Positions 9,078 through 35,012 of a stretch of 36,127 nt of DNA are shown here, one piece after another; the first letter of the stretch is position 1, and each line of letters opens with the position of its first letter. Made by a program: the position numbers and the translations under genes. The stretch lies in the IMG/VR virus record IMGVR_UViG_2627854066_000004, positions 1-36,127 of that record; one strand, 5' to 3'. The stretch is from a virus (Duplodnaviria; Heunggongvirae; Uroviricota; Caudoviricetes). Under the pieces are notes generated by a model. It worked only from the letters and a program-made list of their open reading frames with translations. It was not told the DNA's origin and did not search any database.

Positions 9078-9081
9078 ACCA

Positions 9082-9393: not shown

Positions 9394-9399
9394 CACAAC

Positions 9400-9421
9400 A
9401 TCAGGGCGCATCCGCCCTGAT
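9400..9421 (+). terminator. stem-loop after the stbAB-like unit
   Basis: ATCAGGGCG-CATC-CGCCCTGAT, a 9-bp perfect stem; the downstream T-tract is weak (GACTTT). Confidence 0.4.
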
Positions 9422-9456
9422 GACTTTAATCCGGGAACATAAACAAGGGGGACACA

Positions 9457-9792: not shown

Positions 9793-9857
9793 CGAATTTG
9801 ACGGCTTTTAATTTTATCGGGGCGCACTGTCTCCCCCCCCCGCACGAGGAAAACACG

Positions 9858-10382
9858 ATGAAAAAATACGAATACATGCTAATGAAAGAAGCACTGCGGG
9901 CTGGTCTGGCTCCCTGTCCTGTATCCGTAGAAGCTGTTGTTGGGAACACGATTTTCCGAACGCTGCGAAATCGCGTATCCGTGAAGATGATTCACCAACC
10001 ACCCAAATCTACCAGCATGATCTATCTGCCGCTGCCCGAGGCTATCAAACTTATGCGTTCGCTGAAATTTGCGATTTGGATGCAGACACAACTCAACAAA
10101 GCGGTGCAAAACACCTTCGTTAAGAAACTGATGCCGGAGCTTGCTGCCAGATGTGCAAAATGTACCAGACCCGCACTTCAATTTGATCTGTCATTGATTC
10201 AACAAGCTACGGAGGCAGAACTGTACCGCCTGTCACCTCTCCATGATGTTCACACGGAAGCCTCAGAAATGTTCCGGCTCATGTTTCAATTTAATTTTGC
10301 CGTTCGACGCACACGCGTTCAGGTCAATCGCATGATGCAGGCGCAGGAAGAGCTGACGCAACACAAAGGAGGCAACCAGTGA
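9858..10382 (+). CDS. hypothetical protein
   Basis: 174 aa from ATG 9858 with a GAGGA RBS; no domain recognised. Confidence 0.55.
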   Translation: MKKYEYMLMKEALRAGLAPCPVSVEAVVGNTIFRTLRNRVSVKMIHQPPKSTSMIYLPLPEAIKLMRSLKFAIWMQTQLNKAVQNTFVKKLMPELAARCAKCTRPALQFDLSLIQQATEAELYRLSPLHDVHTEASEMFRLMFQFNFAVRRTRVQVNRMMQAQEELTQHKGGNQ

Positions 10383-10903
10383 GCAAGATTGACTATCAGG
10401 CATTACGCGAACGCTATTCACCTGCGCCAGTACCGAAATGCCCTATTTGCGGCGAGGAAATGTCAATTCAGCGAATATCTGGAGCACAGGTTGTTTATGC
10501 CTGCTCCGGTTATGGTGATGATGGAGATTTCAAAATTGGTCGAACTCTTGCCGACGAACATTATGAAAAATCGCGCGTAACAGTGTTGGATGTCGGGGAT
10601 CCTGAAGTATTGGCGCTACTTGATTGGCTGGAAACTAAAGACAACCGAATCGCTGAACTGGAAAAAATCGCCACTGACTATGCACTTAAATTCCAGAAAG
10701 CACAGGACGCATTAAAGCATGCCGCTTTGCTGCATAGCCGGACGGCGCAACAAACAAATAATTTTGCAGTATCGCTTCCGGACATAAGCGAATATTTCAT
10801 TAATGACGTATTTCAGCCCTTGCGATACGAGCGGGATGTTGAAAGAGCCATCATAAAGGCTGGCGGAAAAGCATTGTGGCAGGAGAAACACGACGACAGA
10901 TAA
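10379..10903 (+). CDS. hypothetical protein with N-terminal zinc-ribbon-like motif
   Basis: 174 aa; GTG start overlaps the upstream stop (GTGA) with an AAAGGAGG RBS; CPICGEEM...YACSGYG. Confidence 0.55.
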   Translation: MSKIDYQALRERYSPAPVPKCPICGEEMSIQRISGAQVVYACSGYGDDGDFKIGRTLADEHYEKSRVTVLDVGDPEVLALLDWLETKDNRIAELEKIATDYALKFQKAQDALKHAALLHSRTAQQTNNFAVSLPDISEYFINDVFQPLRYERDVERAIIKAGGKALWQEKHDDR

Positions 10904-10928
10904 AAATAACACCTGATCTCCCTCAAAC

Positions 10929-10954
10929 CAGGGCGATAATCGCGCATCGCCCTG
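10929..10954 (+). terminator. stem-loop after the three-gene unit
   Basis: CAGGGCGAT-AATCGCGC-ATCGCCCTG, a 9-bp stem; no clean T-tract immediately after. Confidence 0.35.
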
Positions 10955-10955
10955 C

Positions 10956-10982
10956 TGCACAATAGTGCACAAATTTGCACAA
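10956..10982. repeat. three TGCACAA repeats with 10-bp phasing
   Basis: TGCACAA at 10956, 10966 and 10976, followed by a T7 run. Confidence 0.5.
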
Positions 10983-11406
10983 TTTTTTTGAACGACTTTT
11001 TGCCCTTCCGGCCCGCGTGGCGGCTGGATCCGTCAAGGATCCGTGCGTGCACAAAAAAACGCGTTTTTTCTGCGCGCAGGTGACGGGGGAACAGCCCGCG
11101 TTTCAGGGGGTAAATAGCATCCCCTGAACGATGTCGCAGCAACACAACAGAATGGCTGTATTTCTCACGCTGAGCGTGAAAAAGACGTGAGGGCTTTTGA
11201 TTTGATGGGGTGGCAGATAAGGCCGTCAAAATCGCACTGAGGCGGCGAGAACATGCAGTCAGCGCGATGGGATTGCGTAAGAGCCTGACCGTCGATGATG
11301 GCAATAAGCTGGAAGACGTCGTGAAATTATCTGATTGATACAGGAGCTGGAGAGTCGGGGCATAAATTTTTTATGCCCCGGCGAAGCAGCAGACAAGCGA
11401 AGCGCG

Positions 11407-12453
11407 TCAGGATGTGGGCTGGGTGTCCAGCAGTGCGTAAGGGTTAAAGCGGATCACCTCTTCGCCAAGCCAGTCATTGATGTGCTTCATAGCCTCCATG
11501 ACGGGCATCAGCTCGTTAATTGCGTAAACCCGCGCGGCCTTCTCCACATCACCAAACGCACTTTTTTCGCCCGGCATTGCCCCCATCAGTTGCGGCGGAA
11601 CGCGGTGCGCAGCCAGCACATCATCACGGGATGCCGCCTTAACATTCATGAACTCATCCTTTGCGGTGATCTGCTGGAACGGCAAAATTTGCACCCCCTC
11701 TTTGCCCCCGTTGGGCGCGTGGATGAGCACGTTTTTAAACGCACCACCACCACGCGCACCCTGTAACGTTTCTTTCAGGGAGTCCATGCTTTCGCGGTTT
11801 ACCTGCGCTGCACCGATGTAGATGATGCACCCGGCGTGGGATCCGTTGTCGTAATACAGTTTTCTGAACATGTCCGCCGAATGAGACAGGCTGGCCGAGA
11901 GTAATGCGCCAAGATATTCCGGCATGCCGTAAATTTCCTGGTTAATGTCCGGATTCATCAGGTGGCACACTTTGCCAGGGCAAAACTGAAACGCGTCCTT
12001 GCCATCCTGCACATACCACCATGATTCAAGATCGCTTCCGCGTCGCATGTATTTCGCCAGTGCGTGCCGTAATTTAAGTGGTTCGCCGAGCATATTGCTC
12101 CGAAGCTCAAGGAATGCGTTACCGAACACAAACCAGTCCAGCGCCAGCGCCGAGAAATCCTGCCGGGAAAGCAGCGGGTGCGGGATGTAGCAACCGAGCA
12201 ATACATTGCGCTTAAAGTAAAGCGCAGACTGATGCCAGGACGTTTGCCGGGCGGCTCTTGCCAGACCGTACCAGTCCACCGGGGTTTCATACCACCGCCC
12301 GTTATCAGCACAGTACATATTGTCCAGCAGGTCATGCCCGGTCAGGCGATAAGGACCATCAAATGTGAATGCACTGAGCGATGATTCTTTCCTGAGCGCA
12401 TCAGCGAGATCAATGCGTGAACTCATGCGCACTTTTTTATTTTTTCTGCTCAT
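11407..12453 (-). CDS. Q: portal vertex protein, P2 gpQ family
   Basis: 348 aa, size and position as P2 Q, leftward and adjacent to terminase P. Confidence 0.85.
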   Translation of the reverse strand: MSRKNKKVRMSSRIDLADALRKESSLSAFTFDGPYRLTGHDLLDNMYCADNGRWYETPVDWYGLARAARQTSWHQSALYFKRNVLLGCYIPHPLLSRQDFSALALDWFVFGNAFLELRSNMLGEPLKLRHALAKYMRRGSDLESWWYVQDGKDAFQFCPGKVCHLMNPDINQEIYGMPEYLGALLSASLSHSADMFRKLYYDNGSHAGCIIYIGAAQVNRESMDSLKETLQGARGGGAFKNVLIHAPNGGKEGVQILPFQQITAKDEFMNVKAASRDDVLAAHRVPPQLMGAMPGEKSAFGDVEKAARVYAINELMPVMEAMKHINDWLGEEVIRFNPYALLDTQPTS

Positions 12454-14203
12454 CAGAACTCCATAACCGTGAAACGCTCGTTTTCTCCTTCGCCGCCAAT
12501 TGGTTCGTTAATGACAGCAAGCATGGTTGCCCACGCAAGGTCGCCGTGGCTGATCCCCCTCGCGCGGTCCGTTTCGTAAGTGATAAAGCCGCCCGGTGTT
12601 TTCACCTTACGCACGGCGTTAAAGGCCGCGACCAGCTCGCGTTCGGCGCGATCGTATTCCCACCGTCCGGCACGCATTATTTGCAGCATTTTCAGTACCA
12701 GCGACCGTTTGGATGACAGCGTGAAGGTGTACGGAATAGCAGCAGGGAAAAACCGCTTCACTATCTGATAAACAGCCTCCCCGTTCCCGCCCGTCACATC
12801 AATGCCGATGTGTTCCACGTTGTAGCGACACGTGAACTCTTCAATGACTCTGGCCTGTTCTTCAAACTCCAGCCCCTGAACGCGTCGCGTCTCCACCGTT
12901 CGAAAACGGCCACCAGGAACAGCCGGAGGAACCACCACGGACACAGCGCCGCTGTCGCCGTTGCCACTGCTGCCGTTTGCGTCATACCCAATCCATACCG
13001 GACGATTCCCCATCGGGCGGGGAGCAAAAGGTTTCCAGTCTTTCCAGTCGTCGTATCCGTCAACACCGCAGCCAATCAGGATATTCAGGTTAAATGCCGA
13101 TTCCCCTTCGCGGACAAACTCACACATATAGAGATTGCGGAACTCGTCTTCGGTGTTTTCATCACGAATTTCGTCAATATCGGTGTGTTTCCAGCCGTGA
13201 TTAACCACATCTTCCAGCGTGACAATTTGCCGCCACGTCCGGTCAGGGCAGATAAGCCCGTTATGCAGCGTTTTCCAGTCCACAGAAAAACGCTGGCGTT
13301 TATGCGTGGCCTTTTTCTCGTTCCAGCGGTCGCCGTTCCAGTAGGCGTATGCCTCGTGCGTTTCGGTGGATGGCGTGGAGAAGTAGGTGCGCCGCAGTCC
13401 GCTGAGGGTTGCCATAGCGCCAGCCACCTTGCGCAGTTCAGCAAAGCGGCTGACCCAGAAAAATTCATCAAAATAAAAATTGCCCGTGTAGGACTGTGCC
13501 GTCGCAGCAGAAGTACCAAGAAAATGCAGCTCTGCACCGTTGGAGAGGATGATTTTATCGCCCCCTTTCAGCTCCACATCAACTTCAGATGCAGCCTTCT
13601 GAATAATGCTTTTAAACTGGAACGCCTGACGACGCGACGCAGACAAAAAAATCTGGTTACGCTGGTAAGGTTGTGCCACATCGTCACGCAGTGCCATCAG
13701 CAGTGCTTCCTGTGCAAAATACCAGGTCGCCCCAATCTGTCGGGATTTCAGGATCATCCTGTTACGTATCCCGGCTTCCCTGCAAAGGGTCAGAGAGTCA
13801 AACCAGCCCCGCTGATGCCACTCCAGCCTGCTGATGATTTTTTCCCGCAGTGCGGCAATCTGTTCCGGCGTGAAATGATTTTTGAGTTTTTCGCCCGGCT
13901 TTTCTTTCCTGTGGCCGTCGCATCCGGCTGGCCATCATGCAGTTTTTTAAGCTGCCGGGTCAGCAGGTCTATTTCCTTGAAGTCACCACCTGTTTTACTC
14001 TGTTTTTCAGTAAGCTGGATGAGGCGCGCATCGATGGACTGCGTGACACGCTGCACGGGTGGTGTTTCATCCCACTGGTCGCGTTTTTTCCACGCATAAA
14101 TCGTGTTCGGGTTTATTCCCATCAGACGTGATATTTCTGCGGGCGGATAACCCTGCCAGTAAAGTTGCCGCGCACGCTGGCGCACAAAAGCGTCCTGAAT
14201 CAT
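12453..14203 (-). pseudogene. P: terminase large subunit (P2 gpP family), interrupted by an apparent -1 frameshift
   Basis: The N-terminal piece (ORF 13790-14203) and the C-terminal piece (ORF 12453-13757, whose frame stays open upstream) are in different frames. The switch lies in a T-run at about 13899-13909: GGAAAG where GGAAAAG would give a continuous ...ATATGKEKPGEKLKNHF... Confidence 0.75.
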
Positions 14204-14357
14204 TGCTCCCCCTGAGTAATTACAGGAAGATTACCCGCGCGCGAAACCGTTCTCCTTAACCCCCTGTTCTGGCCGTTTTCTTACAACAAAAGCCCTTTGT
14301 ATCAGCCTGTTACGCTTTGCCATCATGACTGAAGAACCAGTCAGAGGGGCAAAAACT
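14204..14357. promoter_or_regulatory. divergent late-promoter region between P and O
   Basis: 154-bp gap between divergently transcribed packaging and head operons; promoter elements were not resolved. Confidence 0.35.
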
Positions 14358-15194
14358 ATGACTAATGAAAAAAAGACATCCCGCAAAAAGTTTCGCGTGG
14401 CTGTCTCCGGTGTGACGGCAGACGGGCGCGAAATCAACGGCGACATGCTGAAAGCTGCCGCCACCAGTTATAACCCGTCCGTTTATGGTGCACGTGTGAA
14501 TATTGAGCACATCCTGTCACCACTCCCCGGCAGCGAGTTTTCCGCTATGGGCGATGTTGTGGGGTTGAGCACCGAAGACATAACCGATGGCCCGCTGGCA
14601 GGCCGCACGGCACTGTATGCCGAAATTGAGCCGACCGCTCGCATGATGTCCCTGCTTAACGATGGTAAAAAAATTTACTCCAGTATTGAGCTGGAACCAC
14701 AGTCAACCATCACGGGAGGCCCTTACCTGCGCGGGCTGGCAATGACCGACACCCCCGCCAGCCTGGGCACGGAACGTCTGGCCTTTGCGGCACAACAACG
14801 TATGCAACTGATGACATTCAACTGTCAGCAGGGAGACGTGGCGATGTTTACCGCCGCTATGGAGTCAGAACTTATCGAACTCACCGAACAACGTCAGGAA
14901 GAAGGCACCCAGTGGTTTAACCGCGTTATGGGGATTATTGGCCGTGGCCGCAAAGCGGATGACGCCAGTTTCTCCCGTATTCAGGAAGCGGTGGAAGGTG
15001 TCGCAACATCACAGGCCGACATTATCGACCGTTTTAATGCACTGGAAACCCGCCATCAGCAGGACAGCCAGAAAATCACTTCGCTGACCACAGAGCTGAC
15101 AGCACTGAAGGAAAAACTGCGCACGCAGGACGGCGATCCGCAGAACCGGTTCACCGCAACGGGCGCAGCCTCCGACCAGCTGGCTGACTTCTGA
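14358..15194 (+). CDS. O: capsid scaffolding protein, P2 gpO family
   Basis: 278 aa from ATG 14358 with a GAGGGG RBS; first gene of the rightward head operon. Confidence 0.8.
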   Translation: MTNEKKTSRKKFRVAVSGVTADGREINGDMLKAAATSYNPSVYGARVNIEHILSPLPGSEFSAMGDVVGLSTEDITDGPLAGRTALYAEIEPTARMMSLLNDGKKIYSSIELEPQSTITGGPYLRGLAMTDTPASLGTERLAFAAQQRMQLMTFNCQQGDVAMFTAAMESELIELTEQRQEEGTQWFNRVMGIIGRGRKADDASFSRIQEAVEGVATSQADIIDRFNALETRHQQDSQKITSLTTELTALKEKLRTQDGDPQNRFTATGAASDQLADF

Positions 15195-15217
15195 TAAGAC
15201 AAAGGAGCAAATTTTTT

Positions 15218-16270
15218 ATGAATCTGGTGATGTCAGATAATGCCCGTAACAAGCTGGGCTGCTACATGACGCGACAGGCGTCGATTAACAATATCCCGGT
15301 TTCTGGACTGGTATCGCGATTTACCGTGGAACCCGCGGTGCAGCAGCGTTTTGAAAACGCCTCAAAGGATAGCACCGAACTTACAAAAAAAATTAACGTG
15401 ATCGGTGTGACCGACCAGAAAGGCGAAAAAGTCCTCATGGACACCACCGGGCCGATTGCGCGCACAAATACCAGTTATGACGGCACAGATCGCCGCAACC
15501 CGATTAACGCTGTCGACCTGAAGTCCCGTCAGTACCAGTGTGAGCAGGTGAACTACGACACGTTTATTTCGTATCCGCAGCTTGATGCCTGGGCGGCGCA
15601 CAATGACTTCCAGACCCGCATCAGCGCACAGATTGCCCGACAGGTGGCGCTTGACCGCATCATGATCGGCTTTAACGGCACGTCACACGCGGAAAAATCC
15701 AACTTCAGCACCAACAAGCTGCTTCAGGACGTTAACGTGGGGTGGCTGGAGCACATCAGAACCAATGCCAGCGCGCGCGTAATGAATGACGTGACGCTGA
15801 CCTCCCGCAACATGGACAACACCGTGGCGCACGCGGGTAAGTATGCGAATGCTGATGCACTGGTTCAGGACGCACGCTCATCCCTGCTGGATGAATGGCA
15901 CAAGGAAGCTGACGACCTCGTGGTGATTATGGGGCGCAACCTGTTTAACTCGCTGCGTCTGCCCGTGCTGAACAGCATCAGCGGCCAGAATCCCAATGCG
16001 GAATTACTCGCCGGGCAGCTCATCCTGTCATCGCGCACCATTGGCGGGCTGGGTGTGTTCCTTGCGCCGTTCTTCCCGGATGCAACGATGCTGATCACCT
16101 CGTTCAACAACCTGTCGATTTACTGGCAGAAAGGTTCAATGCGTCGCCTGATGAAAGACGAGCCGGAATACAACCGCATCGCCACCTACCAGTCCATCAA
16201 TGACGCTTATGTCGTTGAAGACTATGGCAAGTGCGCGATGGTCACTGGCCTGAAGTTCGCCGACAGCTAA
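15218..16270 (+). CDS. N: major capsid protein, P2 gpN family
   Basis: 350 aa with an AAGGAG RBS, between the scaffold and small terminase genes. Confidence 0.85.
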   Translation: MNLVMSDNARNKLGCYMTRQASINNIPVSGLVSRFTVEPAVQQRFENASKDSTELTKKINVIGVTDQKGEKVLMDTTGPIARTNTSYDGTDRRNPINAVDLKSRQYQCEQVNYDTFISYPQLDAWAAHNDFQTRISAQIARQVALDRIMIGFNGTSHAEKSNFSTNKLLQDVNVGWLEHIRTNASARVMNDVTLTSRNMDNTVAHAGKYANADALVQDARSSLLDEWHKEADDLVVIMGRNLFNSLRLPVLNSISGQNPNAELLAGQLILSSRTIGGLGVFLAPFFPDATMLITSFNNLSIYWQKGSMRRLMKDEPEYNRIATYQSINDAYVVEDYGKCAMVTGLKFADS

Positions 16271-16315
16271 TCAACTCACGGCGGGCATCATGCCCGCCTG
16301 TAACGGAGAGAAACA

Positions 16316-17116
16316 ATGATTACTCCTGCACAGCAACACTGGCAGAACGTGATGGCACAGCGCGCAGGCCGGGCGAATGAAGGCGTGGACCACGCCGCGC
16401 GTACCGCGCATGAAGAGGTGCTGTATCGTCTGCGTCTGGCACAGGCCCGGCTTAAGGGCGTACAGGCCAGAAGCGCGAAAGCCGCCATCAAAAAAGAGTT
16501 GTTGCCGGATTTTTCCGGCTGGATTGAGGGAACGCTGGAGGCTGACGGCGGGCAGCAGGATGAAGTGATTGCCACGCTGATGGTGTGGGCGATTGACTGC
16601 GGCGATCTTCCGCTGGCGTTGCGTATTGGTGCGTATGTGGTCCGTCATAACCTCATTATGCCGGATAACTTTGGCCGTACTGCTGCCACAGTGCTGACCG
16701 AAGAAATCTGCAACCCGGTACTGACGCAGGCCGGGACGGATGCCGACGCGGATTTGTCCGCCTTTATCGAACCACTGGATACCCTCCGGGAGATTGTCAC
16801 CGACCAGGACATGCCGGACGAAGTGCGCGCCAAATTATGCAAGGCGTGCGCCTTTGCCCGCCGTGGCCTGAGCGATGCGGACAGCATGGCACTGTCACTG
16901 AAGCTGCTGCGCGAAGCAATGCACCTGAACCCGAACGCAGGTGTGAAACGCGAGATTGCAACCCTTTCCCGCGCCCTGAAAAAAGCCGATTCCGCAGCCG
17001 CACCAGAAGACGCCAGCGCACAGCAGGCGCAGGACGAAAGCAGCAAAAGTAAAAAGACAACGCGGAAGCCTGCAACACGAAAAACCACCGCGACGCAGAA
17101 GGCGAAGCGCGGTTAA
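16316..17116 (+). CDS. M: terminase small (endonuclease) subunit, P2 gpM family
   Basis: 266 aa with a lysine/arginine-rich C-terminal tail. Confidence 0.8.
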   Translation: MITPAQQHWQNVMAQRAGRANEGVDHAARTAHEEVLYRLRLAQARLKGVQARSAKAAIKKELLPDFSGWIEGTLEADGGQQDEVIATLMVWAIDCGDLPLALRIGAYVVRHNLIMPDNFGRTAATVLTEEICNPVLTQAGTDADADLSAFIEPLDTLREIVTDQDMPDEVRAKLCKACAFARRGLSDADSMALSLKLLREAMHLNPNAGVKREIATLSRALKKADSAAAPEDASAQQAQDESSKSKKTTRKPATRKTTATQKAKRG

Positions 17117-17217
17117 CGACTGACCCCGTCAGCGGGCGGCGTGCGCGGTGTTCCGGTCTGACTCCGTGACCGTTTACACCGCGCACCCACCGCCCGATTT
17201 TTTCAGGAGTGAACCCC

Positions 17218-17712
17218 ATGAGTATGGTTGCCAGAACCAACCCCGGACCCGCAGAGGACGACATCACCGATACCGATGATGGTGATACCCGTATTTCAGC
17301 AGGTGCATTCTGGCCGGATATTGTGCTGCGTGAGCTGCGTCTGGCGGTACGACTGCCGGGGCGCGTGACCACCTCCCGCCTGCTGCATACCGCCACCGGG
17401 GCCGTGGCACACGTTACCCGCGAGCTGGAAGCGTGGCAGCAGGAACAGCAGGCGGCTGGCCATCAGACGCTGGCCGATGTTCCGGCACCCGTAATTAACG
17501 GAGAAAGCGTCAATCTCTGGCACTGGCGCAATGCGGTTTACACCGCCACACGCGCCCTGATTCTGGAGCGTTACCGCGATGCGGACACAACGGACAAGGG
17601 CGACCGCCGGGCGGACGCACTGGATATACAGACATCGGATTTGTGGCGCGATGTGAGCTGGGCCATCTCTGACATTCTGTGCCGCCCGCGAATCTTTGCG
17701 GAGTTGTGCTGA
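17218..17712 (+). CDS. L: head completion/stabilisation protein, P2 gpL family
   Basis: 164 aa from ATG 17218 with a CAGGAG RBS. Confidence 0.8.
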   Translation: MSMVARTNPGPAEDDITDTDDGDTRISAGAFWPDIVLRELRLAVRLPGRVTTSRLLHTATGAVAHVTRELEAWQQEQQAAGHQTLADVPAPVINGESVNLWHWRNAVYTATRALILERYRDADTTDKGDRRADALDIQTSDLWRDVSWAISDILCRPRIFAELC

Positions 17713-17912
17713 TGAAAGTGAAGGCACTGGAAGGCGACACCGTGGATTCGCTCTGTTTCCGGTACTACGGCACGACGCAGGGCGTCACCGAAAAGGTGCT
17801 GGATGCCAACCCCGGACTCTGTCAGCAGGTATTTCTGGACGCCGGGCAGGAGGTGGAGATGCCGGAGCCGGAGAAGAAGAAACGAGAAATGATTCAGTTG
17901 TGGGGGGAGTAG
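17712..17912 (+). CDS. X: tail protein X
   Basis: 66 aa; start overlaps the L stop (TGATG). Confidence 0.7.
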   Translation: MKVKALEGDTVDSLCFRYYGTTQGVTEKVLDANPGLCQQVFLDAGQEVEMPEPEKKKREMIQLWGE

Positions 17913-17914
17913 CA

Positions 17915-18238
17915 GTGAGCACCATTCAAACAGGGATCACAGAGCAGGTTATTGCGTGGCTCTTTGACCACCTGCCAACGGTGTATGCAGTAGGCGCGGC
18001 GGTCAGCATTTCCGCGCTGATGAGTCTTTATGACGGACGAACACTGGTTCAGACCGTAACGGGATCGCTGGCGTGCGGCGTTCTTGCCATGGCCGTGGCC
18101 GGGTCGTTGCGCTTCTTCGGGTTTCCTGAAGATGCCGTGACGTTTATCGGCGCATCAATCGGTTTTATGGGTGCAGAGAAAGCACGCGACAAGGTTATTG
18201 CGGCCTTTAATCGCAGGGTGAAGGAGAAGGACGAATGA
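17915..18238 (+). CDS. holin
   Basis: 107 aa from a GTG start with a GGGGGGAG RBS; hydrophobic segments; located immediately upstream of the endolysin. Confidence 0.6.
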   Translation: MSTIQTGITEQVIAWLFDHLPTVYAVGAAVSISALMSLYDGRTLVQTVTGSLACGVLAMAVAGSLRFFGFPEDAVTFIGASIGFMGAEKARDKVIAAFNRRVKEKDE

Positions 18239-18627
18239 GCAACACATTTAAATTCAGCAGCCGGAGCGAAAAGAATTTGCAGGGCGTAAATCCTGATCTG
18301 GTGAAAGTGACCCGACGGGCACTGGAAATCTCGGAAGTGGATTTTGGTATCACCGAAGGGTTGCGCAGCCGTTACCGCCAGAAGCAACTGGTGGCCACGG
18401 GTAAGAGCCAGACCATGAACAGCCGCCACCTTACGGGACATGCCGTGGATGTTGTGGCTTATATCGGCAGCCAGGTGTCATGGGAATGGCCGCTGTACGA
18501 AAAAATCGCAGCAGCATTCAGACAGGCCAGCCGGCAACTGAATATTCCGGTGGAATGGGGCGGCGACTGGAAGACCCTGAAAGACGGACCGCATTTTCAG
18601 TTACCACACGGAGCCTATCCGGCATGA
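18235..18627 (+). CDS. endolysin, peptidase M15-type (L-alanyl-D-glutamate peptidase)
   Basis: 130 aa with the zinc-ligand motif SRHLTGHAVD and a downstream His; ATGA coupling with the holin. Confidence 0.7.
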   Translation: MSNTFKFSSRSEKNLQGVNPDLVKVTRRALEISEVDFGITEGLRSRYRQKQLVATGKSQTMNSRHLTGHAVDVVAYIGSQVSWEWPLYEKIAAAFRQASRQLNIPVEWGGDWKTLKDGPHFQLPHGAYPA

Positions 18628-19031
18628 AGCTCTGGCCCACGCTGGGCGTCGCTTTCCTTCTGATTGCCGCATGGGGAACATCCATGCGTCTGTCGTGGTC
18701 GCTGGGCCGGGAGAACGCCAGAAACGAAGCGCAGGCCAGCGCCCTGAAAAGTACCGTCGACACCCTGAATATCATCAGCACCGGGGTACAGGATATGCAG
18801 CAGGTGCTGGCGCAACTCCGCGTGGAAAATCAACAGCGAAATCAGGACGGAGAGGCCAGACGTGAACAGCTACGCAACGATATTGCAAAAGATGAATGCG
18901 CCCACGCTTTGCCTGACGCTCGTTTTACTGACAGGTTGCGCAGGCACGCAGAACGCGCCACGGCCAGCGCCGTCAGTCCGGCTTATACCGCAGACGCTGA
19001 CCATACCAGTAATGCCTCCCCCCTTCCCTGA
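18624..19031 (+). CDS. i-spanin (Rz/LysB-like)
   Basis: 136 aa; N-terminal TM segment LWPTLGVAFLLIAAWG followed by a charged coiled region. Confidence 0.6.
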   Translation: MKLWPTLGVAFLLIAAWGTSMRLSWSLGRENARNEAQASALKSTVDTLNIISTGVQDMQQVLAQLRVENQQRNQDGEARREQLRNDIAKDECAHALPDARFTDRLRRHAERATASAVSPAYTADADHTSNASPLP

Positions 19032-19182
19032 TACTCCCACATGGGGAAATCTCGGTATATGGGGCGACCGCCTTCTGGATGCACTGGAAACCTGTAACGC
19101 GGATAAACGGGCCATTGAATTACTGGAACAGCGCAGACTGCAACGACTGAACAACGAGGACAACAACCATGCTGAAAACTGA
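18892..19182 (+). CDS. o-spanin lipoprotein (Rz1/LysC-like), starting in the +1 frame inside the i-spanin gene
   Basis: Signal peptide with lipobox LLTGC (MNAPTLCLTLVLLTGCAG); proline-rich mature part. An alternative GTG start lies at 18862. Confidence 0.6.
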   Translation: MNAPTLCLTLVLLTGCAGTQNAPRPAPSVRLIPQTLTIPVMPPPFPDTPTWGNLGIWGDRLLDALETCNADKRAIELLEQRRLQRLNNEDNNHAEN

Positions 19183-19636
19183 TTCCCTGCGTGAAGCCAT
19201 GACCCGTTCATGCCGATGGTGTCAGGCCAACCCGGAAAAATTCACCATTTTCGTGGAGAGCGGCAACATTGAAACGACCGGAGAAACGCCCTCGTTTGTT
19301 TACCACTATCAGATGGTGATGTTTGTCATGGATTACGCCGGGGAGCTGGACGACCTCACGCTGCCGCTGCTGGCGTGGTTATCCGAAAATCAGCCACAGT
19401 TGTTGCTCAACCCTGAGCGTAATCAGGACATCAAATTCTCCGCCGTTATCAATGACGATGACAGCGCCGATCTCCTGTTTACGCTCCCCCTGCGGGAACG
19501 CGTTCGCATCACGCGCAGCAGTCAGGGCACACCGCAGGCAGAACACCTGCCGGAGCCAAAACCCCGCCTGCCATCTTCCGAAGGCGACTGGTCGCATGTA
19601 TTCCAGGATGTGACGTGGGGTGAAAGCGATGGATAA
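19169..19636 (+). CDS. R: tail completion protein, P2 gpR family
   Basis: 155 aa, the same length as P2 R. Confidence 0.8.
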   Translation: MLKTDSLREAMTRSCRWCQANPEKFTIFVESGNIETTGETPSFVYHYQMVMFVMDYAGELDDLTLPLLAWLSENQPQLLLNPERNQDIKFSAVINDDDSADLLFTLPLRERVRITRSSQGTPQAEHLPEPKPRLPSSEGDWSHVFQDVTWGESDG

Positions 19637-20264
19637 GGCATTCACCCGCGTGGATGAAACCTTTGAGGCCATCCGCGACAGCCTGAATCAGCAGGCCATC
19701 AATAACATCGCCAGAAAGCTGGCACAGGATTTACGCCGCGCCCAGCAGGCGCGTATCCGGTCACAGAAAGCGCCGGACGGGACCGCGTGGACACCACGCA
19801 GACGCCGCGTAACCCGGATACAGGAGCGCATTCGCTTTATCTGGAATAACGAAGCACGCACGCTGAAAAACTGGCATCACGACACGGGGAAATACGGGCG
19901 AACCATTACCGGGTGGGATGAGGATAAAAATAATATCCGCACGTTTTACCGGGATGACATCGACCGTTTTCTGGAAATACGCACCCGGCGCATCAACCAG
20001 GACAGCACAAAGCGCGTCCCCATGTTCGTAAAACTGCGCACCGCCCGCTACCTGAAAGCCCGTGCAGATGCTTCCGGTGTGACGGTGGGTTACAGCGGCG
20101 TGGCCGCACGTATTGCCCGCGTTCATCAGTTCGGTGAGCGCGATCAGGTTGCGCCGGGCATTTTCACCGATTACCCGGTACGTGAGCTGTTGGGTATCAG
20201 CCAGGCAGATGAGCGCCTGATTTATAACACGGTGCTGGGCCGGATTGCGGAGGCTGTACGGTGA
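19629..20264 (+). CDS. S: tail completion / virion morphogenesis protein, P2 gpS family
   Basis: About 211 aa; start may be the GTG at 19620 or the ATG at 19629. Confidence 0.7.
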   Translation: MDKAFTRVDETFEAIRDSLNQQAINNIARKLAQDLRRAQQARIRSQKAPDGTAWTPRRRRVTRIQERIRFIWNNEARTLKNWHHDTGKYGRTITGWDEDKNNIRTFYRDDIDRFLEIRTRRINQDSTKRVPMFVKLRTARYLKARADASGVTVGYSGVAARIARVHQFGERDQVAPGIFTDYPVRELLGISQADERLIYNTVLGRIAEAVR

Positions 20265-20842
20265 GCGCAGAACTCATGCGACTGCTGAGCAATATCATCC
20301 GCACCGGGATCATCTCTGAAGTTGATGAGAAGTCCTGGCGCGTGCGCGTTCGCAGCGGCGAACTGGAAACAGGCTGGCTGCGCTGGAACACCACGCGCGC
20401 GGGAGCCTTCAATGTGTGGCTGCCGCCATCACCAGGCGAACAGGTGGTAATTGCCTGCATTGGCGGCAACCCGGAAACCGCCATGATAATTGGCAGCCTG
20501 TGGAGTGATGCCAATCCGGCACCCGGCAAAAGCCTGAAAGAAATCGTGATCAGCGCGCCGGACGGCGCGGTGTTCCGCTACGACGCGGACGCTGGCGCAC
20601 TGAGCGCCAGCGGCATGAAAACGGCCACTTTACAGGCATCCGTCAGCGTGAAACTGGATACGCCCGTCGTGGAATGCACAAACCTTCTGAGAACGGCGAC
20701 GCTTGACGTCACAAAAGGAGGAAAGATGAGCGGCAATATCACGCACAGCGGCGGCAACTTCACCTCAAACGGCATTACCGTGCATACGCATAAACACGGT
20801 GGCGTGAAAGGCGGCAGCGATTCGACAGGAGGCCCGCAGTGA
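20261..20842 (+). CDS. V: baseplate spike/assembly protein, P2 gpV family
   Basis: 193 aa from a GTG start with stop/start overlap. Confidence 0.8.
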   Translation: MSAELMRLLSNIIRTGIISEVDEKSWRVRVRSGELETGWLRWNTTRAGAFNVWLPPSPGEQVVIACIGGNPETAMIIGSLWSDANPAPGKSLKEIVISAPDGAVFRYDADAGALSASGMKTATLQASVSVKLDTPVVECTNLLRTATLDVTKGGKMSGNITHSGGNFTSNGITVHTHKHGGVKGGSDSTGGPQ

Positions 20843-21189
20843 CAACCCGCTACACAGGAATGAATCCGGACGGGACGGGAAACCTGAACGATATGGAGCA
20901 CCTGAAACAGTCAGTCAGGGATATCCTGACCACCCCGCTGGCAAGCCGGGTTATGCGACGGGAATATGGCAGCCTTGTGCCTGATTTGATTGACGAACCC
21001 ATGAATAACACCACGCGTCTGCAATGCATGAGTGCTGCCGTGATTGCGCTGACACGATGGGAACCCCGCATTGCCCTGGATGCCATCGACGTTGTCTGGA
21101 AAGCGGGAGGCCGCGCCGGGGTGACGCTGTCGGGCACTGTCATGCAGACCATGCAAAATGTTGAATTAACCATCACGCTGAGGGAGTAA
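20839..21189 (+). CDS. W: baseplate wedge protein, P2 gpW family
   Basis: 116 aa between V and J. Confidence 0.8.
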   Translation: MTTRYTGMNPDGTGNLNDMEHLKQSVRDILTTPLASRVMRREYGSLVPDLIDEPMNNTTRLQCMSAAVIALTRWEPRIALDAIDVVWKAGGRAGVTLSGTVMQTMQNVELTITLRE

Positions 21190-21192
21190 ATC

Positions 21193-22088
21193 ATGCCTGC
21201 CGTTGACCTTTCCCAGTTACCGGAACCCGCCATCATCGCGGAGCCTGACTTTGAGGCAATTCTGGCTGACACAAAGGCCATGATGATTGCGGCTTATCCC
21301 GCCGAACAGCGTGAAGCCGTCTCCGCCGCGCTGGAGCTGGAATCGGAACCCCTGAACGTTATCGCCCAGACAACAGCGTTTCGTGAAATGCTGTTACGCC
21401 AGCGGGTCAATGAGGGGGCACGCGCCTGCATGTTAAGCCACAGCGCCGGGACAGACCTGGACAACCTCGCGGGCAATATGAACACAAAGCGCCTGACCAT
21501 CACTCCGGCAACGGATACCACCGACGCGGTGATGGAGAGCGACACCTCGCTGAGACTGCGGGCGCAGCGGGCGTACGACGGCCTGAGTGTTGCTGGCCCG
21601 TCAGGTGCATACGAGTATTTTGCCCGCAGCGCCAGCGGTCTGGTGCGTGATGCGCGGGCTATCAGCCCGTCTCCGGCAAATGTGACGGTTTCCATCCTGT
21701 CCACTGAGGGCGACGGCACAGCAACGGAGGCGTTGCTTAATACCGTTCGCGCCGTTCTGAATGCAGAGGATACCCGCCCGGTGGCCGACCGCCTGACCGT
21801 ACAGAGCGCCAGAATCGTGACATGGCGGCTGAATGCAAAACTGTACTTTTACCCGGCCCGGAATCCGAACCTATTCTGGCCGCGGCTGAATCGTCGTTCA
21901 GGAAGTGGCTGGCTGAGCAGGGGCTTATCGGTCAGGACGTGGCGTTGTCCGCCATTGCTGCCGCACTGCATGTGCACGGTGTGCAACGCGTGGAGATAAT
22001 CGAACCCACACAGAATATGACCATCAGCGACATACAGGCGGCGCGCTGTGAGTCATTCACCATCAGCGAAGGTGGACGCAATGAGTAA
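21193..22088 (+). pseudogene. J: baseplate protein (P2 gpJ family), interrupted by an apparent 1-nt deletion
   Basis: ORF 21193-21999 loses its protein-like character after ...LYFYP, while the frame of ORF 21822-22088 continues with GPESEPILAAAE... The sequence reads CCCGGCCCGG at 21852-21861 where CCCGGGCCCGG would restore the frame. Confidence 0.75.
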
Positions 22089-22689
22089 TTCACTGTTACC
22101 ACCATCAGCCAGCAATTTCATGCGTTGTGCCGAAGCCGTCGGAACACGCATTACAGACATTCCGGTAGACCTCAACACGCTGTGGTCGCCGGACACCTGC
22201 CCGGTGCATCTGCTGCCTTATCTCGCCTGGGCGTTTTCCGTTGACCGCTGGGATCGCAACTGGCCGGAAGAGACAAAGCGACAGGTAATTCGTGATGCAT
22301 GGCTGATACACCGACACAAAGGGACCATCAGCGCACTGCGAAGAGCCGTGGAGCCTCTCGGCTACCTGATTGAAGTAAAGGAGTGGTGGCAACTCAACGA
22401 GGAGCCAGGAACATTTCGCATTGTTGTCGGAGTACTTGATCAGGGCATCACCGATGAAATGTATCAGGAACTTGAGCGCCTTATTGCGGATGCAAAACCA
22501 GTAAGTCGCCATCTGACGGGGCTGGCGATCAGCCTGAGTGTGAACGGAAAGATTTTCGTTGGTACGGGATGCTATCACGGCGATGCCCTGACGGTTTATC
22601 CCTACACCCCGGAGTCCATTATTGTCGAAGGGGATTATTTCCCTGCCCCGGCCATTCATTTAATTGATAATCTGAGAGTAAACGCATGA
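22081..22689 (+). CDS. I: baseplate protein, P2 gpI family
   Basis: 202 aa from ATG 22081, overlapping the J stop. Confidence 0.8.
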   Translation: MSNSLLPPSASNFMRCAEAVGTRITDIPVDLNTLWSPDTCPVHLLPYLAWAFSVDRWDRNWPEETKRQVIRDAWLIHRHKGTISALRRAVEPLGYLIEVKEWWQLNEEPGTFRIVVGVLDQGITDEMYQELERLIADAKPVSRHLTGLAISLSVNGKIFVGTGCYHGDALTVYPYTPESIIVEGDYFPAPAIHLIDNLRVNA

Positions 22690-24299
22690 CAGTGAAATAC
22701 TACGCCATTCTGACTAATCAGGGCGCAGCACGACTGGCTAACGCGACGATGCTCGGCAGTAAGCTGAATCTGACGCAAATGGCCGTTGGTGATGCAAATG
22801 GTGTGTTACCAACACCAGACCCTGCACAAACAAAACTGATTAACCAGAAACGCATTGCACCGCTGAATCTTCTGAGTGTTGACCCTAACAATCAGAGCCA
22901 GATTATTGCGGAGCAAATCATCCCTGAAAACGAGGGAGGATTCTGGATCCGTGAGATTGGTCTTTATGATGATGAAGGTGTACTCATTGCGGTGGCAAAC
23001 TGCCCGGAAACGTACAAACCGCAGTTGCAGGAAGGCAGTGGACGCACCCAGACTATCCGCATGATTCTGGTTGTCACGAACACCGAAGCCATCACGCTGA
23101 AAATCGACCCGTCTGTGGTTCTGGCAACCCGCAAATATGTGGATGATAAAATCTCAGAGCACGAACAGTCACGACGTCACCCAGACGCCTCGCTGACCGT
23201 AAAAGGTTTTACTCAGTTAAGCAGTGCAATTAACAGTGAATCAGAAACACTGGCCGCAACACCGAAAGCGGTTAAGGCTGCATATGACCTGGCTAACGAG
23301 AAATATACCGCCCAGAACGCCACCACTACACAAAAAGGGATTGTTCAGCTCAGTAGCGCCACGAACAGCACGTCTGAAACACTGGCAGCGACACCAAAAG
23401 CTGTTAAGGCGGTAATGGATGAAACGAACAAGAAAGCACCATTAAACAGCCCGGCACTGACCGGAACGCCAACAACACCAACAGCGGCACAGGGGACTAA
23501 TAGTACCCAGATCGCAAGCACGGCTTTCGTTATGGCCGCGATTGCCGCACTTGTAGACTCGTCACCTGATGCACTGAACACGCTGAACGAACTGGCTGCG
23601 GCGCTGGGCAATGACCCGAATTTTGCGACCACCATGACTAACGCGCTTGCGGGTAAGCAACCGAAGGATGCCACCCTGACGGCGCTGGCGGAGCTTGCTA
23701 CATCAGCAGATAAACTCCCATATTTTACAGGGGCAGATCGTGCCGCGTTAACCGCGTTGACAAGTGTTGGACGTGCCATTCTTGGCAAAACCAGCACTCA
23801 GGGAGTTCTTGATTACCTTGGTTTAGGAGAAGGCTCTGCACTGCCCGTTGGTGTGCCCGTTCCGTGGCCCTTAGCAACACCACCAACGGGCTGGCTGAAA
23901 TGTAACGGTGCAGCATTTTCTTCTGAAATGTACCCCAATCTGGCAAAAGCCTACCCCACCAATAAATTACCGGATTTACGGGGCGAATTTATTCGTGGCT
24001 GGGATGATGGGCGAGGAATTGATGCAGCACGCGCTTTATTGAGCATTCAAACCGGGATGTTGGAAAAACACCGCCATATTGTTGTAGCTAACGATGGATA
24101 TGACACAAAGGATGAATGGGAGTTGGCCACGATTTTCAAAAAAACATATACACAAGGCAGGGGGCTTGATGCCACAAATACAGGAGGGAGTTTGATTCCA
24201 TCACCAACGCTTCATTCACGAGGAAGTATTGGTAACACAGGTGGTAGTGAAACCCGCCCCCGCAATATTGCATTTAACTATATCGTGAGGGCGGCTTAG
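22686..24299 (+). CDS. H: tail fibre protein, P2 gpH / Mu S family, with a constant N-terminal part and an exchangeable C-terminal segment
   Basis: 537 aa; the C-terminal part from ...LGLGEGSALPVGVPVPWP... onward is shared at its start with three inverted downstream cassettes; conserved C-terminus RPRNIAFNYIVRAA. Confidence 0.85.
   Translation: MTVKYYAILTNQGAARLANATMLGSKLNLTQMAVGDANGVLPTPDPAQTKLINQKRIAPLNLLSVDPNNQSQIIAEQIIPENEGGFWIREIGLYDDEGVLIAVANCPETYKPQLQEGSGRTQTIRMILVVTNTEAITLKIDPSVVLATRKYVDDKISEHEQSRRHPDASLTVKGFTQLSSAINSESETLAATPKAVKAAYDLANEKYTAQNATTTQKGIVQLSSATNSTSETLAATPKAVKAVMDETNKKAPLNSPALTGTPTTPTAAQGTNSTQIASTAFVMAAIAALVDSSPDALNTLNELAAALGNDPNFATTMTNALAGKQPKDATLTALAELATSADKLPYFTGADRAALTALTSVGRAILGKTSTQGVLDYLGLGEGSALPVGVPVPWPLATPPTGWLKCNGAAFSSEMYPNLAKAYPTNKLPDLRGEFIRGWDDGRGIDAARALLSIQTGMLEKHRHIVVANDGYDTKDEWELATIFKKTYTQGRGLDATNTGGSLIPSPTLHSRGSIGNTGGSETRPRNIAFNYIVRAA
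23806..23831 (+). repeat. recombination site for the DNA invertase (gix/hix-like) inside H
   Basis: TTCTTGATTACC-TT-GGTTTAGGAGAA, 26 bp with a central TT dinucleotide and half-sites resembling Hin/Gin sites; the inner arm and about 200 bp downstream are repeated in inverted orientation at 25367-25392, 25884-25909 and 26362-26387. Confidence 0.6.
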
Positions 24300-24305
24300 T
24301 TATAT

Positions 24306-24917
24306 TCAACTGGCTGCTGCCAGTGGTATTTCCGGCAAGTTGATATCTGGTGCCATGTTTATATCCATTGCGTTCAGCGCGTCTATATAATCCAGCACGG
24401 CGTTAAGCCGGGTGGTTTCTGCCTGCGTCAACTTCCGCCCGGCCTGCAACTTCAACTGAATCAGACTTATGGAAGCCATTGCCGCATCAGCCAGTGACTG
24501 GCGCTTGGTTTCTGCCGCTTCTACTGCGGCACTATGTTGTGCCTCAGTATCTGTCACCCATTTTTCACCATCCCATTTATCGTATGGTGTTGACGGGGAG
24601 ATAGTGGTTGTATTTTTCGGGTAGTCACCTAGCGTCGTGATTTCTTCGGTGTTTCCCGTGTCAGTGTTATAGACGGTTTCACCACGATGATCTGGCGTAT
24701 ACTCCCATGAATTTAAATTCTCCGAACGGCGGATAGCATAGCCCGCTTTATGTGCGCCCGGGGCATCTAAACAGGAATTTGCCGGAATACCGACACCCGC
24801 AGCAAGATATTCAGTTGATTCGGAAATATATTCCCGTGTCTCACCATCATAGTTATAAACGACGATGTTTCCTGCCTGTACGGCAATAAGGTCATCATTT
24901 AATATCGCGTTATTCAT
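24306..24917 (-). CDS. tail fibre assembly protein (P2 gpG / Mu U family)
   Basis: 203 aa on the minus strand, translationally coupled to cassette 1 and convergent with the current H C-terminus. Confidence 0.8.
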   Translation of the reverse strand: MNNAILNDDLIAVQAGNIVVYNYDGETREYISESTEYLAAGVGIPANSCLDAPGAHKAGYAIRRSENLNSWEYTPDHRGETVYNTDTGNTEEITTLGDYPKNTTTISPSTPYDKWDGEKWVTDTEAQHSAAVEAAETKRQSLADAAMASISLIQLKLQAGRKLTQAETTRLNAVLDYIDALNAMDINMAPDINLPEIPLAAAS

Positions 24918-25392
24918 TATGCGGTTCTCACAATATAATTGAAGGCAATATTGCGTGGGCGGGTTTCATTCCCCTCTGAGGATTCCGTTCTGTATTGACT
25001 GGTAAATCTACCGTTAATTGCACCTTGCCGGACGGCGTTATCTGTCGACAACAGACTATCCCCGCCTTTGTCATTTGGCACCAGTACCGTGTTATCCCAC
25101 GCATCCCATGACCGAATATTATGATAATGACTTCCTGTTAACCACCCCTGCATGCTTAAGATGACCCTTCCGGCATCCACCCCGCGCCCATCATCCCAGC
25201 CACGGATAAATTCACCGCGTAAGTCTGGTAATTTATTGGTGGGGTAAGCCATTGCCAGTCTGGGATACATTTCAGAAGAAAATGCTGCGCCGTTACATTT
25301 CAGCCACCCCGTTGGCGGCGTGGCTGAGGGCCATGGAACAGGTACACCAACGGGCAGTGCAGAGCCTTCCCCCAAACCAACGTTTTCATGCT
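24917..25392 (-). other. promoterless alternative tail-fibre C-terminal cassette 1 with its crossover site
   Basis: Minus-strand reading frame starting in the crossover sequence (GEGSALPVGVPVPWPSATPPTGWLKCNGAAFSSEMYP...) and ending ...NIAFNYIVRTA; no start codon or RBS of its own. Confidence 0.7.
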
Positions 25393-25909
25393 GCTCTTAC
25401 GATGTAATTAAACGCAATGTTGCGTGGGCGGTTTTCGTTTGCAGTTGGAACAATTCTTGAAGCATCAAGGCCAATCACTTTTGGGTAAACAGTGCCATCT
25501 GTTCTTTCAGTCACCATACTTCTGATTAAGGAGAAATAACTATTGTTCGTTGAGGGACTCAAAGGCACCACTGCCCCCTTAAATGAGCCTACTGATTCCC
25601 ATATTGAATAATTTTCGGTGTTTACAGTCTTGAACTCACCATAGATATTACGTATGGCATCACCTTGAGCGGATAATATTGTTCTCCCCGCATCCACACC
25701 ACGTCCGTCATCCCAACCACGGATAAATTCACCGCGTAAATCCGGTAATTTATTGGTGGGATAAGCCTTTGCCAGTTTTGGGTACTTTTCAGAAGAAAAT
25801 GCTGCTCCGTTGCATTTCAGCCATCCCGTTGGCGGTGTTTCTAAGGGCCACGGAACGGGTACACCAACGGGCAGTGCAGAGCCTTCCCCCAAACCAACGT
25901 TTTCATGCT
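25386..25909 (-). other. promoterless alternative tail-fibre C-terminal cassette 2 with its crossover site
   Basis: Same conserved 5' block and 3' end (...NIAFNYIVRAA) with a different middle; its stop codon lies inside the crossover site of cassette 1. Confidence 0.7.
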
Positions 25910-26387
25910 GCCCTTACGATGTAATTAAACGCAATGTTATGGGGGCGTGTTTCAGATGCTGTGCGAACTGAGCGAGAGGCGTCGAATGTCCATACAGAAG
26001 CACCATATCCTTCAATGATCTCAGTTGGTTGTAAGCCTACTGATAATATAGAGTCAGTTTGACTAAATGGTCCTGAATTAAGCGCATCTTTAAAAAGCTG
26101 AGTACGCCCAAAAGTGCCAACTATATTCTGAATAGCGTCAGACTGTGCAGACAGTAGGTTGCGCCCATTATCAACGCCCCGTCCGTCATCCCAGCCGCGA
26201 ATAAATTCGCCCCGTAAATCCGGTAATTTATTGGTGGGGTAGGCCTTTGCCAGATTGGGGTACATTTCAGAAGAAAATGCTGCGCCGTTACATTTCAGCC
26301 ACCCCGTTGGCAGCGTGGCTGAGGGCCATGGAACGGGCACACCAACGGGCAGCGCAGAGCCTTCCCCCAAACCAACGTTTTCGTCTT
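25903..26387 (-). other. promoterless alternative tail-fibre C-terminal cassette 3 with its crossover site
   Basis: Same conserved ends with a third variable middle; its crossover site 26362-26387 is next to the invertase gene. Confidence 0.7.
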
Positions 26388-26441
26388 TATCCCTACCTAT
26401 ACCAACTATGTATTTTTCACGAAACAAAAAGGATGTTTTTT

Positions 26442-27041
26442 ATGCAAATTGGCTATATTCGTGTGTCAACAAATGACCAGAACACGGATTTACAACGCAA
26501 TGCACTGAACTGCGCAGGATGTGAACTGATTTTTGAAGATAAAATCAGCGGAACGAAATCAGCCAGACCGGGATTGAAAAAACTGCTCAGAACGCTATCA
26601 GAAGGAGATACGCTGGTTGTCTGGAAGCTGGACAGACTGGGCAGAAGTATGAAACACCTGATCACGTTTATTGAGGAATTGCGGAAAAAAGGTGTTAATT
26701 TCCGTAGTCTGACGGACAGCATTGACACATCAACACCCATGGGGCGTTTCTTTTTTCACGTCATGGGGGCTTTAGCCGAAATGGAACGTGAATTAATTGT
26801 AGAGCGTACACTGGCCGGGCTGGCAGCAGCACGCGCACAAGGACGCATTGGCGGACGTCGCCCGAAGTTGACAAAAGAACAACACGAGCAAATAGCGAGG
26901 CTGATTAAAAACGGTCATGACAGGAAACAACTGGCGATCATTTACGACATCGGCATATCGACGATTTATCGTTATCACCCTGTAGGCGATATACAGGCTG
27001 AAGAAACAACCAGGCAGACTCAGGAAAATGAAAACCGCTAA
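26442..27041 (+). CDS. site-specific DNA invertase, serine recombinase of the Hin/Gin/Cin/Pin family
   Basis: 199 aa; N-terminus MQIGYIRVSTNDQNTDLQ with the catalytic Ser, and a C-terminal HTH (GISTIYRY); AAGGA RBS. Confidence 0.9.
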   Translation: MQIGYIRVSTNDQNTDLQRNALNCAGCELIFEDKISGTKSARPGLKKLLRTLSEGDTLVVWKLDRLGRSMKHLITFIEELRKKGVNFRSLTDSIDTSTPMGRFFFHVMGALAEMERELIVERTLAGLAAARAQGRIGGRRPKLTKEQHEQIARLIKNGHDRKQLAIIYDIGISTIYRYHPVGDIQAEETTRQTQENENR

Positions 27042-27059
27042 TCTGACCATTAGCGGTTT
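27032..27059. terminator. bidirectional stem-loop between the convergent invertase and U genes
   Basis: AAACCGCTA-N10-TAGCGGTTT with T-runs on both strands. Confidence 0.5.
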
Positions 27060-32810: not shown

Positions 32811-33920
32811 ATGACCGACACCACCATGCAATTGCTCAGTCAAGGCACAGACCCTGTAAAAATGCCGGATTTTGATATTCTCGCGGAGGGTAAAACGCTG
32901 TCCGGCGTGGCAGAGCGCCTGATGAGCCTGTCGCTGACCGACAACCGGGGATTTGAGGCAGACCAGCTCACCATCACGCTGGATGATGCGGATGGTCAGT
33001 TGCAGCTACCGCCACGGGGCGCGCGCCTGAAGGTTCTCATTGGCTGGAAAGGCGAACCGCTGACAGAAAAAGGCACTTACATTGTTGATGAAATCGCTCA
33101 CGAAGGACCGCCGGACAGGCTGACTGTTTCGGCCAGAAGCGCAGATTTTCGGGATGAATTTAACGTTAAACGTGAGGTGTCCTGGCATGATGTGACCGTT
33201 GAGCGTGTGGTATCCGCCATCGCTCATCGGTATGGTCTGAAACCGCAAATCAGCGAAATGCTGATGGATATCGAAATCGACCACGCCGACCAGACCGAAG
33301 AAAGCGACATGTCCTTCCTTACGCGCATGGCGGAAATGCTGGGCGCAATCACCACGGTAAAAAGCGGCAATCTGTTATTCATCATGCCAGGTGGTGGCGT
33401 GAACGCACAGGGCCAGCCGTTGCCCTCGTTCGCCATTACACGCAGCAGCGGCGATCGCCATCAGTTCCGTATTGCTGACCGCGAGGCTTATACGGGGGTA
33501 CGCGCCTACTGGCTTGATCTTAATTACGGGAAAAAGAAAAAAGTCAGCGTAAAACGCCGTAAACCGCCAAAACCCAAAAAGGAGAAAAGCAGCAGCCGTG
33601 AAGGTGATTATATGGAAGGCGCGGAAGGCAATGTGTTTGTGTTACGCAAGACTTATCAGAACGAGCAGGCAGCAAGACGCGCAGCGGCGGCAAAGTGGCA
33701 GCAGCTACAACGCGGAGCCGCAGCGTTCTCCATCACGCTGGCGCGTGGACGTGCAGAACTCTACCCCGAAATGCATGGCACGGTAACAGGATTTAAAAGC
33801 GAGATTGATAATCAGGACTGGATTATTGCAAAAGCGGAGCACTCTATTGATAACAGTGGCTTTACCACGCAGCTTGAGCTTGAAGCAAAAATCCCGGAAT
33901 GGATAGCAGAAACAGAGTGA
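32811..33920 (+). CDS. D: tail protein D (P2 gpD family)
   Basis: 369 aa from ATG 32811 with a GGGAGGGAG RBS; followed by ogr as in P2. Confidence 0.8.
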   Translation: MTDTTMQLLSQGTDPVKMPDFDILAEGKTLSGVAERLMSLSLTDNRGFEADQLTITLDDADGQLQLPPRGARLKVLIGWKGEPLTEKGTYIVDEIAHEGPPDRLTVSARSADFRDEFNVKREVSWHDVTVERVVSAIAHRYGLKPQISEMLMDIEIDHADQTEESDMSFLTRMAEMLGAITTVKSGNLLFIMPGGGVNAQGQPLPSFAITRSSGDRHQFRIADREAYTGVRAYWLDLNYGKKKKVSVKRRKPPKPKKEKSSSREGDYMEGAEGNVFVLRKTYQNEQAARRAAAAKWQQLQRGAAAFSITLARGRAELYPEMHGTVTGFKSEIDNQDWIIAKAEHSIDNSGFTTQLELEAKIPEWIAETE

Positions 33921-34986: not shown

Positions 34987-35012
34987 TGCCTAGTGGGCGA
35001 ATCAGAATGACA

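Follow-up and report, generated by a model that had tools for sequence, protein, structure and literature searches.

The DNA analysed in this study, a stretch of 36,127 nt (hereafter, the window), is a P2-like prophage of E. coli 53C, and it corresponds to positions 1,583,306-1,619,432 of record JXMX01000001.1 (2.27 Mb; GCA_000831715.2). The left prophage end is marked by the integrase gene (window positions 1-990, minus strand) and the right end by a Com/DNA-methyltransferase pair (35321-36127). In 53C the prophage is placed between pheL and raiA, and related E. coli carry the same element between pheA/pheL and raiA. In strain 104, a chicken E. coli (NZ_CP029164.1, L060 41137-41629) whose raiA-IS4-bamD-rluD flank is identical to that of the source strain, pheL directly adjoins raiA. 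Because the attachment site is empty there, the prophage is a variable insertion in this chromosomal background. Two features near the right end are recorded here in their own right. An accessory module at 34000-36127, which to our knowledge is absent from the canonical P2 genome, recurs at 100% identity in several unrelated E. coli genomes; its genes code for Ogr, a Hok/Gef toxin, a TM2-domain protein, a Com-type zinc-ribbon regulator, and an N6/N4 DNA methyltransferase. For tail gene D (32811-33920), the source record and several relatives have a call of 369 aa, and the RefSeq entries of T28R, EC556, and CM151354 have one of only 266 aa ('VgrG/Pvc8 family'; L001 32284-33137, L016 39679-40532), with a small partial pseudogene on the opposite strand just upstream of it. 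The difference in length may stem from inconsistent annotation or choice of start codon, or it may reflect a true 5' difference.

The baseplate genes follow the order V-W-J-I-H, as in P2, in the gene tables of both the source record and its relatives. Gene V (20261-20842, plus strand; 193 aa) and an intact gene W (20839-21189, plus strand; GPW/gp25 baseplate wedge, 116 aa) lie upstream of J, and gene I (22081-22689, plus strand; 202 aa, 'phage tail protein I' in the relatives) and gene H (22686-24299; 537 aa) lie downstream. The start of I overlaps the natural stop of J by 8 nt, so I is the neighbour normally coupled to J. Gene J itself, a member of the P2 gpJ/Baseplate_J family, extends over 21193-22088 on the plus strand. 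It measures 896 nt here versus 897 nt in intact relatives such as T28R, EC556, and CM151354, in which it is annotated as 'baseplate assembly protein' or 'baseplate J/gp47 family protein'.

A tail-fibre region with several invertible cassettes occupies 22686-27047. Three silent 'Collar'-domain cassettes (25149-25388, 25690-25905, and 26170-26378) are inverted repeats of the 3' part of H (23810-24049), with 84-91% complementarity; a fourth inverted repeat, which is short, is formed by 24238-24298 and 24918-24978, and a Hin/Cin-type resolvase gene is found at about 26448-27047 (plus strand). The order and number of cassettes vary among near-identical relatives, e.g., the 155- and 168-aa cassettes are swapped between L022 and L023, and four to five cassettes are present in L027, L057, and L058. 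Judged from sequence, this variable arrangement suggests that inversion may be active and may serve host-range switching.

In the deposited sequence, J opens with an ORF of 268 aa (21193-21999, plus strand), whose translation consists of 221 native residues and 47 out-of-frame residues: it follows J up to ...RLNAKLYFYP (P221), after which the frame is lost. The native C-terminus (GPESEPILAAAE...GGRNE*) runs on in the +2/-1 frame to position 22088. This 3' part (native residues 222-298; 21855-22088, plus strand) lies inside the mechanically called ORF 21822-22088, and its translation, ...LLPGPESEPILAAAESSFRKW...GGRNE, equals the C-terminus of intact J. The initial annotation had attributed the split to a one-base deletion in a G/C-rich run after ...LYFYP, with CCCGGCCCGG at 21852-21861, and both points are confirmed. 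The lesion is a CCC at 21852-21854 on the plus strand (JXMX01000001.1:1,605,157-1,605,159), window positions 21850-21856 reading TAC-CCG-G, and the frame is shifted after Pro221. In the alignments, the relatives read TTTTA-CCCC-GGCCCGG where the window reads TTTTA-CCC-GGCCCGG. Since the relatives have CCCC at this position, the run has shrunk from C4 to C3 (at the CCC codon of Pro221), and the missing base is a C and not the G that had been assumed. The restored protein is the same either way, as insertion of a C or of a G gives back the same Y-P-G-P-E.

In the closest complete genomes, one extra base in the relative is the sole difference over a 1,101-base alignment, and putting one C back into the window yields a 298-aa J identical to that of E. 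coli T28R (annotated baseplate assembly protein). The 268-aa fragment matches the Pfam Baseplate_J profile (PF04865) with an E-value of 1.6e-13 over profile positions 112-217 of 255, and the restored 298-aa J matches it with an E-value of 2.6e-19 and reaches the profile end (255 of 255). As deposited, J thus lacks the single continuous frame of approximately 298-302 aa of the Baseplate_J family, and its last 77 residues, which contain the C-terminal domain (PF26079 according to precomputed tables), are detached from the rest in this record.

A second homopolymer lesion of the same type had been reported for the terminase, and it is indeed present. The gene for the terminase large subunit P (12453-14203, minus strand) is split into parts of 137 aa (13790-14203) and 434 aa (12453-13757), and P measures 583 aa in intact relatives. 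The lesion is a TTTTT at 13887-13891 (JXMX01000001.1:1,597,192-1,597,196), i.e., a shortening of T6 to T5, or of A6 to A5 on the coding strand. Putting one T back gives a 583-aa P that is identical to the P of L017, a Logan assembly (run SRR14865337). P is intact in both L017 and L019, which are near-identical to the window over its left 18 kb. The 434-aa ORF of P is called on 23 contigs; that these contigs share the lesion of the window was considered and rejected, as they represent contig-end truncations or different splits (77 + 434 aa; L062, L063). Separately, the cluster of the 137-aa P fragment at 90% identity contains ten other sequences from other assemblies, nine of which are exactly 137 aa long, with E. 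coli E128010, an NCTC strain, and several Logan runs among the sources. By its lengths, this cluster would imply that other records, too, carry -1 frameshifts ahead of this stop codon.

To establish how rare the two lesions are, both sites were censused by regular expressions in the fetched loci. The J site has four bases in 24 out of 24 fetched relatives (CCCC in 22 and TCCC in two), and the P site has six bases in 28 out of 28 (TTTTTT in 25 and CTTTTT in three); the short forms of both are carried, among the fetched loci, only by three loci cut from the record of the window itself. Among 5,426 complete E. coli genomes, a 61-nt probe across the J lesion matched 1,009 records, none of them exactly and the best at 98.4% (one gap), and a 63-nt probe across the P lesion matched 831 records in the same set, again without an exact match. 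The J lesion was matched neither in the species-representative genomes (as a 48-mer) nor in IMG/VR or the metagenome contigs (as a 30-mer), and the 30-mer of the P lesion found no match in IMG/VR; a 31-mer of intact J occurs on at least 120 IMG/VR contigs. Only one contig in the protein index, JXMX01000001.1, has the exact 268-aa J product. Given that none of about 1,000 related E. coli copies carries either lesion, the two are not chance variation.

These counts bear directly on the idea that the split is functional, namely, that J and P are expressed by programmed -1 ribosomal frameshifting or transcriptional slippage, or are subject to a phase-variable switch for virion production. The sole point that speaks for this is the location of both lesions in homopolymer runs. 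One programmed frameshift is in use in P2-like phages, but at another place, in the tail chaperone genes E/E+E'. The frame structure seen here was found in none of the 24 fetched relatives, in none of about 1,000 complete-genome copies, and in neither IMG/VR nor the metagenomes, and homologues with the same frame structure, which had been named as the finding that would overturn the deletion, do not exist among the sequences searched. Moreover, UUU-UAC-CCG-GCC is not an X-XXY-YYZ slippery heptamer, and runs of three to five bases are far shorter than any slippage or contingency tract known to us. Programmed frameshifting and phase variation are effectively refuted by this lack of conservation, and next to no probability is assigned to a functional split.

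The full set of changes private to the window was then assessed with an alignment-free k-mer test, in which the 21-mers of the window were compared with those of 56 related loci pooled, leaving out the three loci from its own record. Out of approximately 36,100 21-mers, 32 were absent from the 56 loci, and all 32 span the two deletions, in clusters at G-TTTTT-C (13886-13892) and A-CCC-G (21851-21855). Since every missing 21-mer spans a deletion, the window carries no substitution or insertion of its own, its only private changes being the two one-base homopolymer deletions; the rest of the prophage is made up of sequence present in intact relatives. Pairwise comparisons are consistent with this picture. 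L017 differs from window positions 1-18051 by the P deletion and by one substitution, at position 535, where EC556 has the same allele; L016 differs over 10956-23147 (12.2 kb) by 34 substitutions and exactly the J and P indels; and L057 differs over 18589-25430 by eight substitutions and one gap.

Such a pattern invites two explanations, an error in the deposited consensus or genuine mutation, and the remaining homopolymers of the window do little to separate them. Thirteen runs of seven bases or more, among them a C9, show no private length change versus the 56 loci. These unchanged long runs are neutral, because in vivo slippage and under-calling both favour long runs. The C9, the longest homopolymer in the window, is an intergenic tract at 9833-9841, upstream of a 174-aa ORF (9858-10382); L017 also has C9 here, and L019, otherwise identical over the left 18 kb, has C8, so the tract is naturally or technically variable. 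At the 3' end of gpA (8018-8024), the window has A7 and T28R and CM151354 have A6, with the products ending in ...QKNAPRYMKRA* and ...QKTRRDI*, respectively. This A7 was considered as a third homopolymer error and rejected: the exact 950-aa product occurs in 42 collection blocks from several separate assemblies, and because of this recurrence the A7 is regarded as a natural allele.

If both deletions were real mutations private to strain 53C, slippage in C4 and A6 would have knocked out J and the large terminase, leaving a very recently defective prophage that can neither package DNA nor make tails but keeps integration, immunity, lysis, and accessory genes. This reading draws support from the deposited consensus itself, in which the lesions stand with approximately 67x support, and from the occurrence of P2-like prophages that are defective and have P, J, and the capsid genes broken, e.g., in CP027363.1 (L039). 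The mutational spectrum speaks against it. In mutation accumulation experiments with E. coli, substitutions arise spontaneously about ten times as often as one-base indels, so two private indels with zero private substitutions in 36 kb fit the spontaneous spectrum poorly. The intact P of the near-identical L017 and L019, and the lack of either lesion in any other of about 1,000 copies, likewise argue against mutation. Taken as a whole, real mutation is considered unlikely.

The state of the remaining virion genes points the same way. According to the gene tables of the source record, all virion genes except J and P have the same lengths as in intact relatives, and this holds for the portal gene, O, N, M, L, X, holin, lysin, LysB/C, R, S, V, W, and I, as well as for H, G, U, T, E/E', FII, FI, D, and Ogr. 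Beyond the J and P lesions, no IS insertion, deletion, truncated neighbour, or excess of substitutions was found in the prophage, and neither a lesion shared by descent nor further decay, by which a true pseudogene would be recognised, was seen among the relatives compared. The initial annotation had left the choice between systematic sequencing error and a coordinated inactivation of virion genes. The latter is not supported, given the other virion genes at full length and the intact P of L017 and L019; it would also lack a selective logic, because breaking P and J would presumably not protect the host from lysis, and with the lysis genes intact, the loss of P and J would bring no obvious benefit to the host. 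A related view is that real frameshifts arose together in strain 53C as the very first step of prophage domestication; packaging and tail assembly would have been lost before any other decay, and the integration, immunity, lysis, and accessory genes (Hok/Gef, the TM2 protein, and the Com-methyltransferase pair) would have been retained. This view is quite improbable.

The alternative that had been named, systematic sequencing error, is in line with how the source genome was obtained. Strain 53C is an ST117 isolate from chicken meat (Utrecht, 2010), sequenced on the PacBio RS II with P4-C2 chemistry on five SMRT cells, which gave 95,263 reads and 471.5 Mbp (PMC4270446). The reads were assembled with HGAP v3 into 11 contigs at a mean depth of 66.7x, and correction is described as re-mapping of the same reads with SMRT software (SMRT Analysis) only, short-read polishing being undescribed (PMC4270446). 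Illumina data exist for 53C (PRJNA224234), and their use for polishing the PacBio contigs is unmentioned in the same paper (PMC4270446). In long-read-only bacterial assemblies, residual errors are mostly errors of homopolymer length, and these split genes (PMC8812927, PMC12007338). The window shows what is expected of such errors: it stems from a long-read-only assembly, its changes are one-base changes in run length (C4 to C3 and T6 to T5), and these are private and unaccompanied by substitutions. Two private homopolymer deletions with zero substitutions in a PacBio-only record therefore fit the error spectrum of a long-read consensus.

Evidence on the quality of this assembly tempers the above, and it counts in favour of real mutations. 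A published comparison of the IncK plasmid contig of 53C with a plasmid sequenced independently gave '100%' identity outside the shufflon (PMC5350095), a result that speaks for a good consensus, on plasmids at least. The accessible chromosomal right flank of the same record (4.2 kb; raiA-IS4-bamD-rluD) is error-free as well, being 100% identical to other genomes; fewer than 0.3 errors would be expected over this length at the rate of the window. An HGAP/Quiver consensus typically reaches QV 45-50, and two errors in 36 kb are on the high side at 67x. The flank also contains an IS4 between raiA and bamD (L056 2168-3497, approximately 0.75-2.1 kb past the right end of the window), whose transposase is split into 101 + 336 aa. 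This was examined as a third assembly frameshift and rejected, since many E. coli genomes contain the element at 100% identity and its annotation in strain 104 reads 'frameshifted'; given this recurrence, the split is an inherited pseudogene state.

Considering all of this, the split of J is probably a consensus error of a PacBio-only assembly and not a property of the phage, a conclusion held with good, though not full, confidence. In J, the consensus would have under-called a short C run by one base, reading C4 as C3, and in P, an A6 would have been read as A5, a second error of the same kind. We infer that strain 53C itself has both bases in its DNA and that only the consensus lacks them. 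With the two bases restored, the P2-type virion module of the prophage would be complete and to all appearances functional.

The finding is of little importance for biology. If the lesions are errors, its practical side is one of data hygiene: for want of polishing of an early PacBio-only assembly, the prophage would be misclassified as defective or cryptic, and fragments or pseudogenes would be annotated in place of two essential virion genes. Before split virion genes are taken as a sign of domestication, long-read-only records should first be checked for private homopolymer indels. If the lesions are real, the element would be an ordinary, very young defective prophage.

Compared with P2, J of the window shares with gpJ, the baseplate wedge protein of that phage, its position in the V-W-J-I-H operon and the match to the Baseplate_J profile, and differs in that its frame is broken after residue 221. 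Cryptic P2-like prophages of E. coli resemble the window in having split terminase and baseplate genes, as in CP027363.1, but their lesions comprise IS insertions, several further broken genes, and divergence, whereas the window has two one-base deletions only, all its other sequence occurring in intact relatives. In CP027363.1 (L039) and UASE01000009.1 (L063), many virion genes are split, including those for the capsid (172 + 177 aa), J (163 + 135 aa), and P (77 + 434 aa). The splitting in CP027363.1, where IS insertions accompany it, looks like real decay, and the density of fragmented genes in UASE01000009.1 may reflect assembly quality. The false pseudogenes of long-read-only assemblies offer another comparison: like them, the window has private single-base deletions in runs, each splitting an otherwise perfectly conserved gene, and it departs from them in that the affected runs are short (four and six bases) and the 4.2-kb flank of the record is clean.
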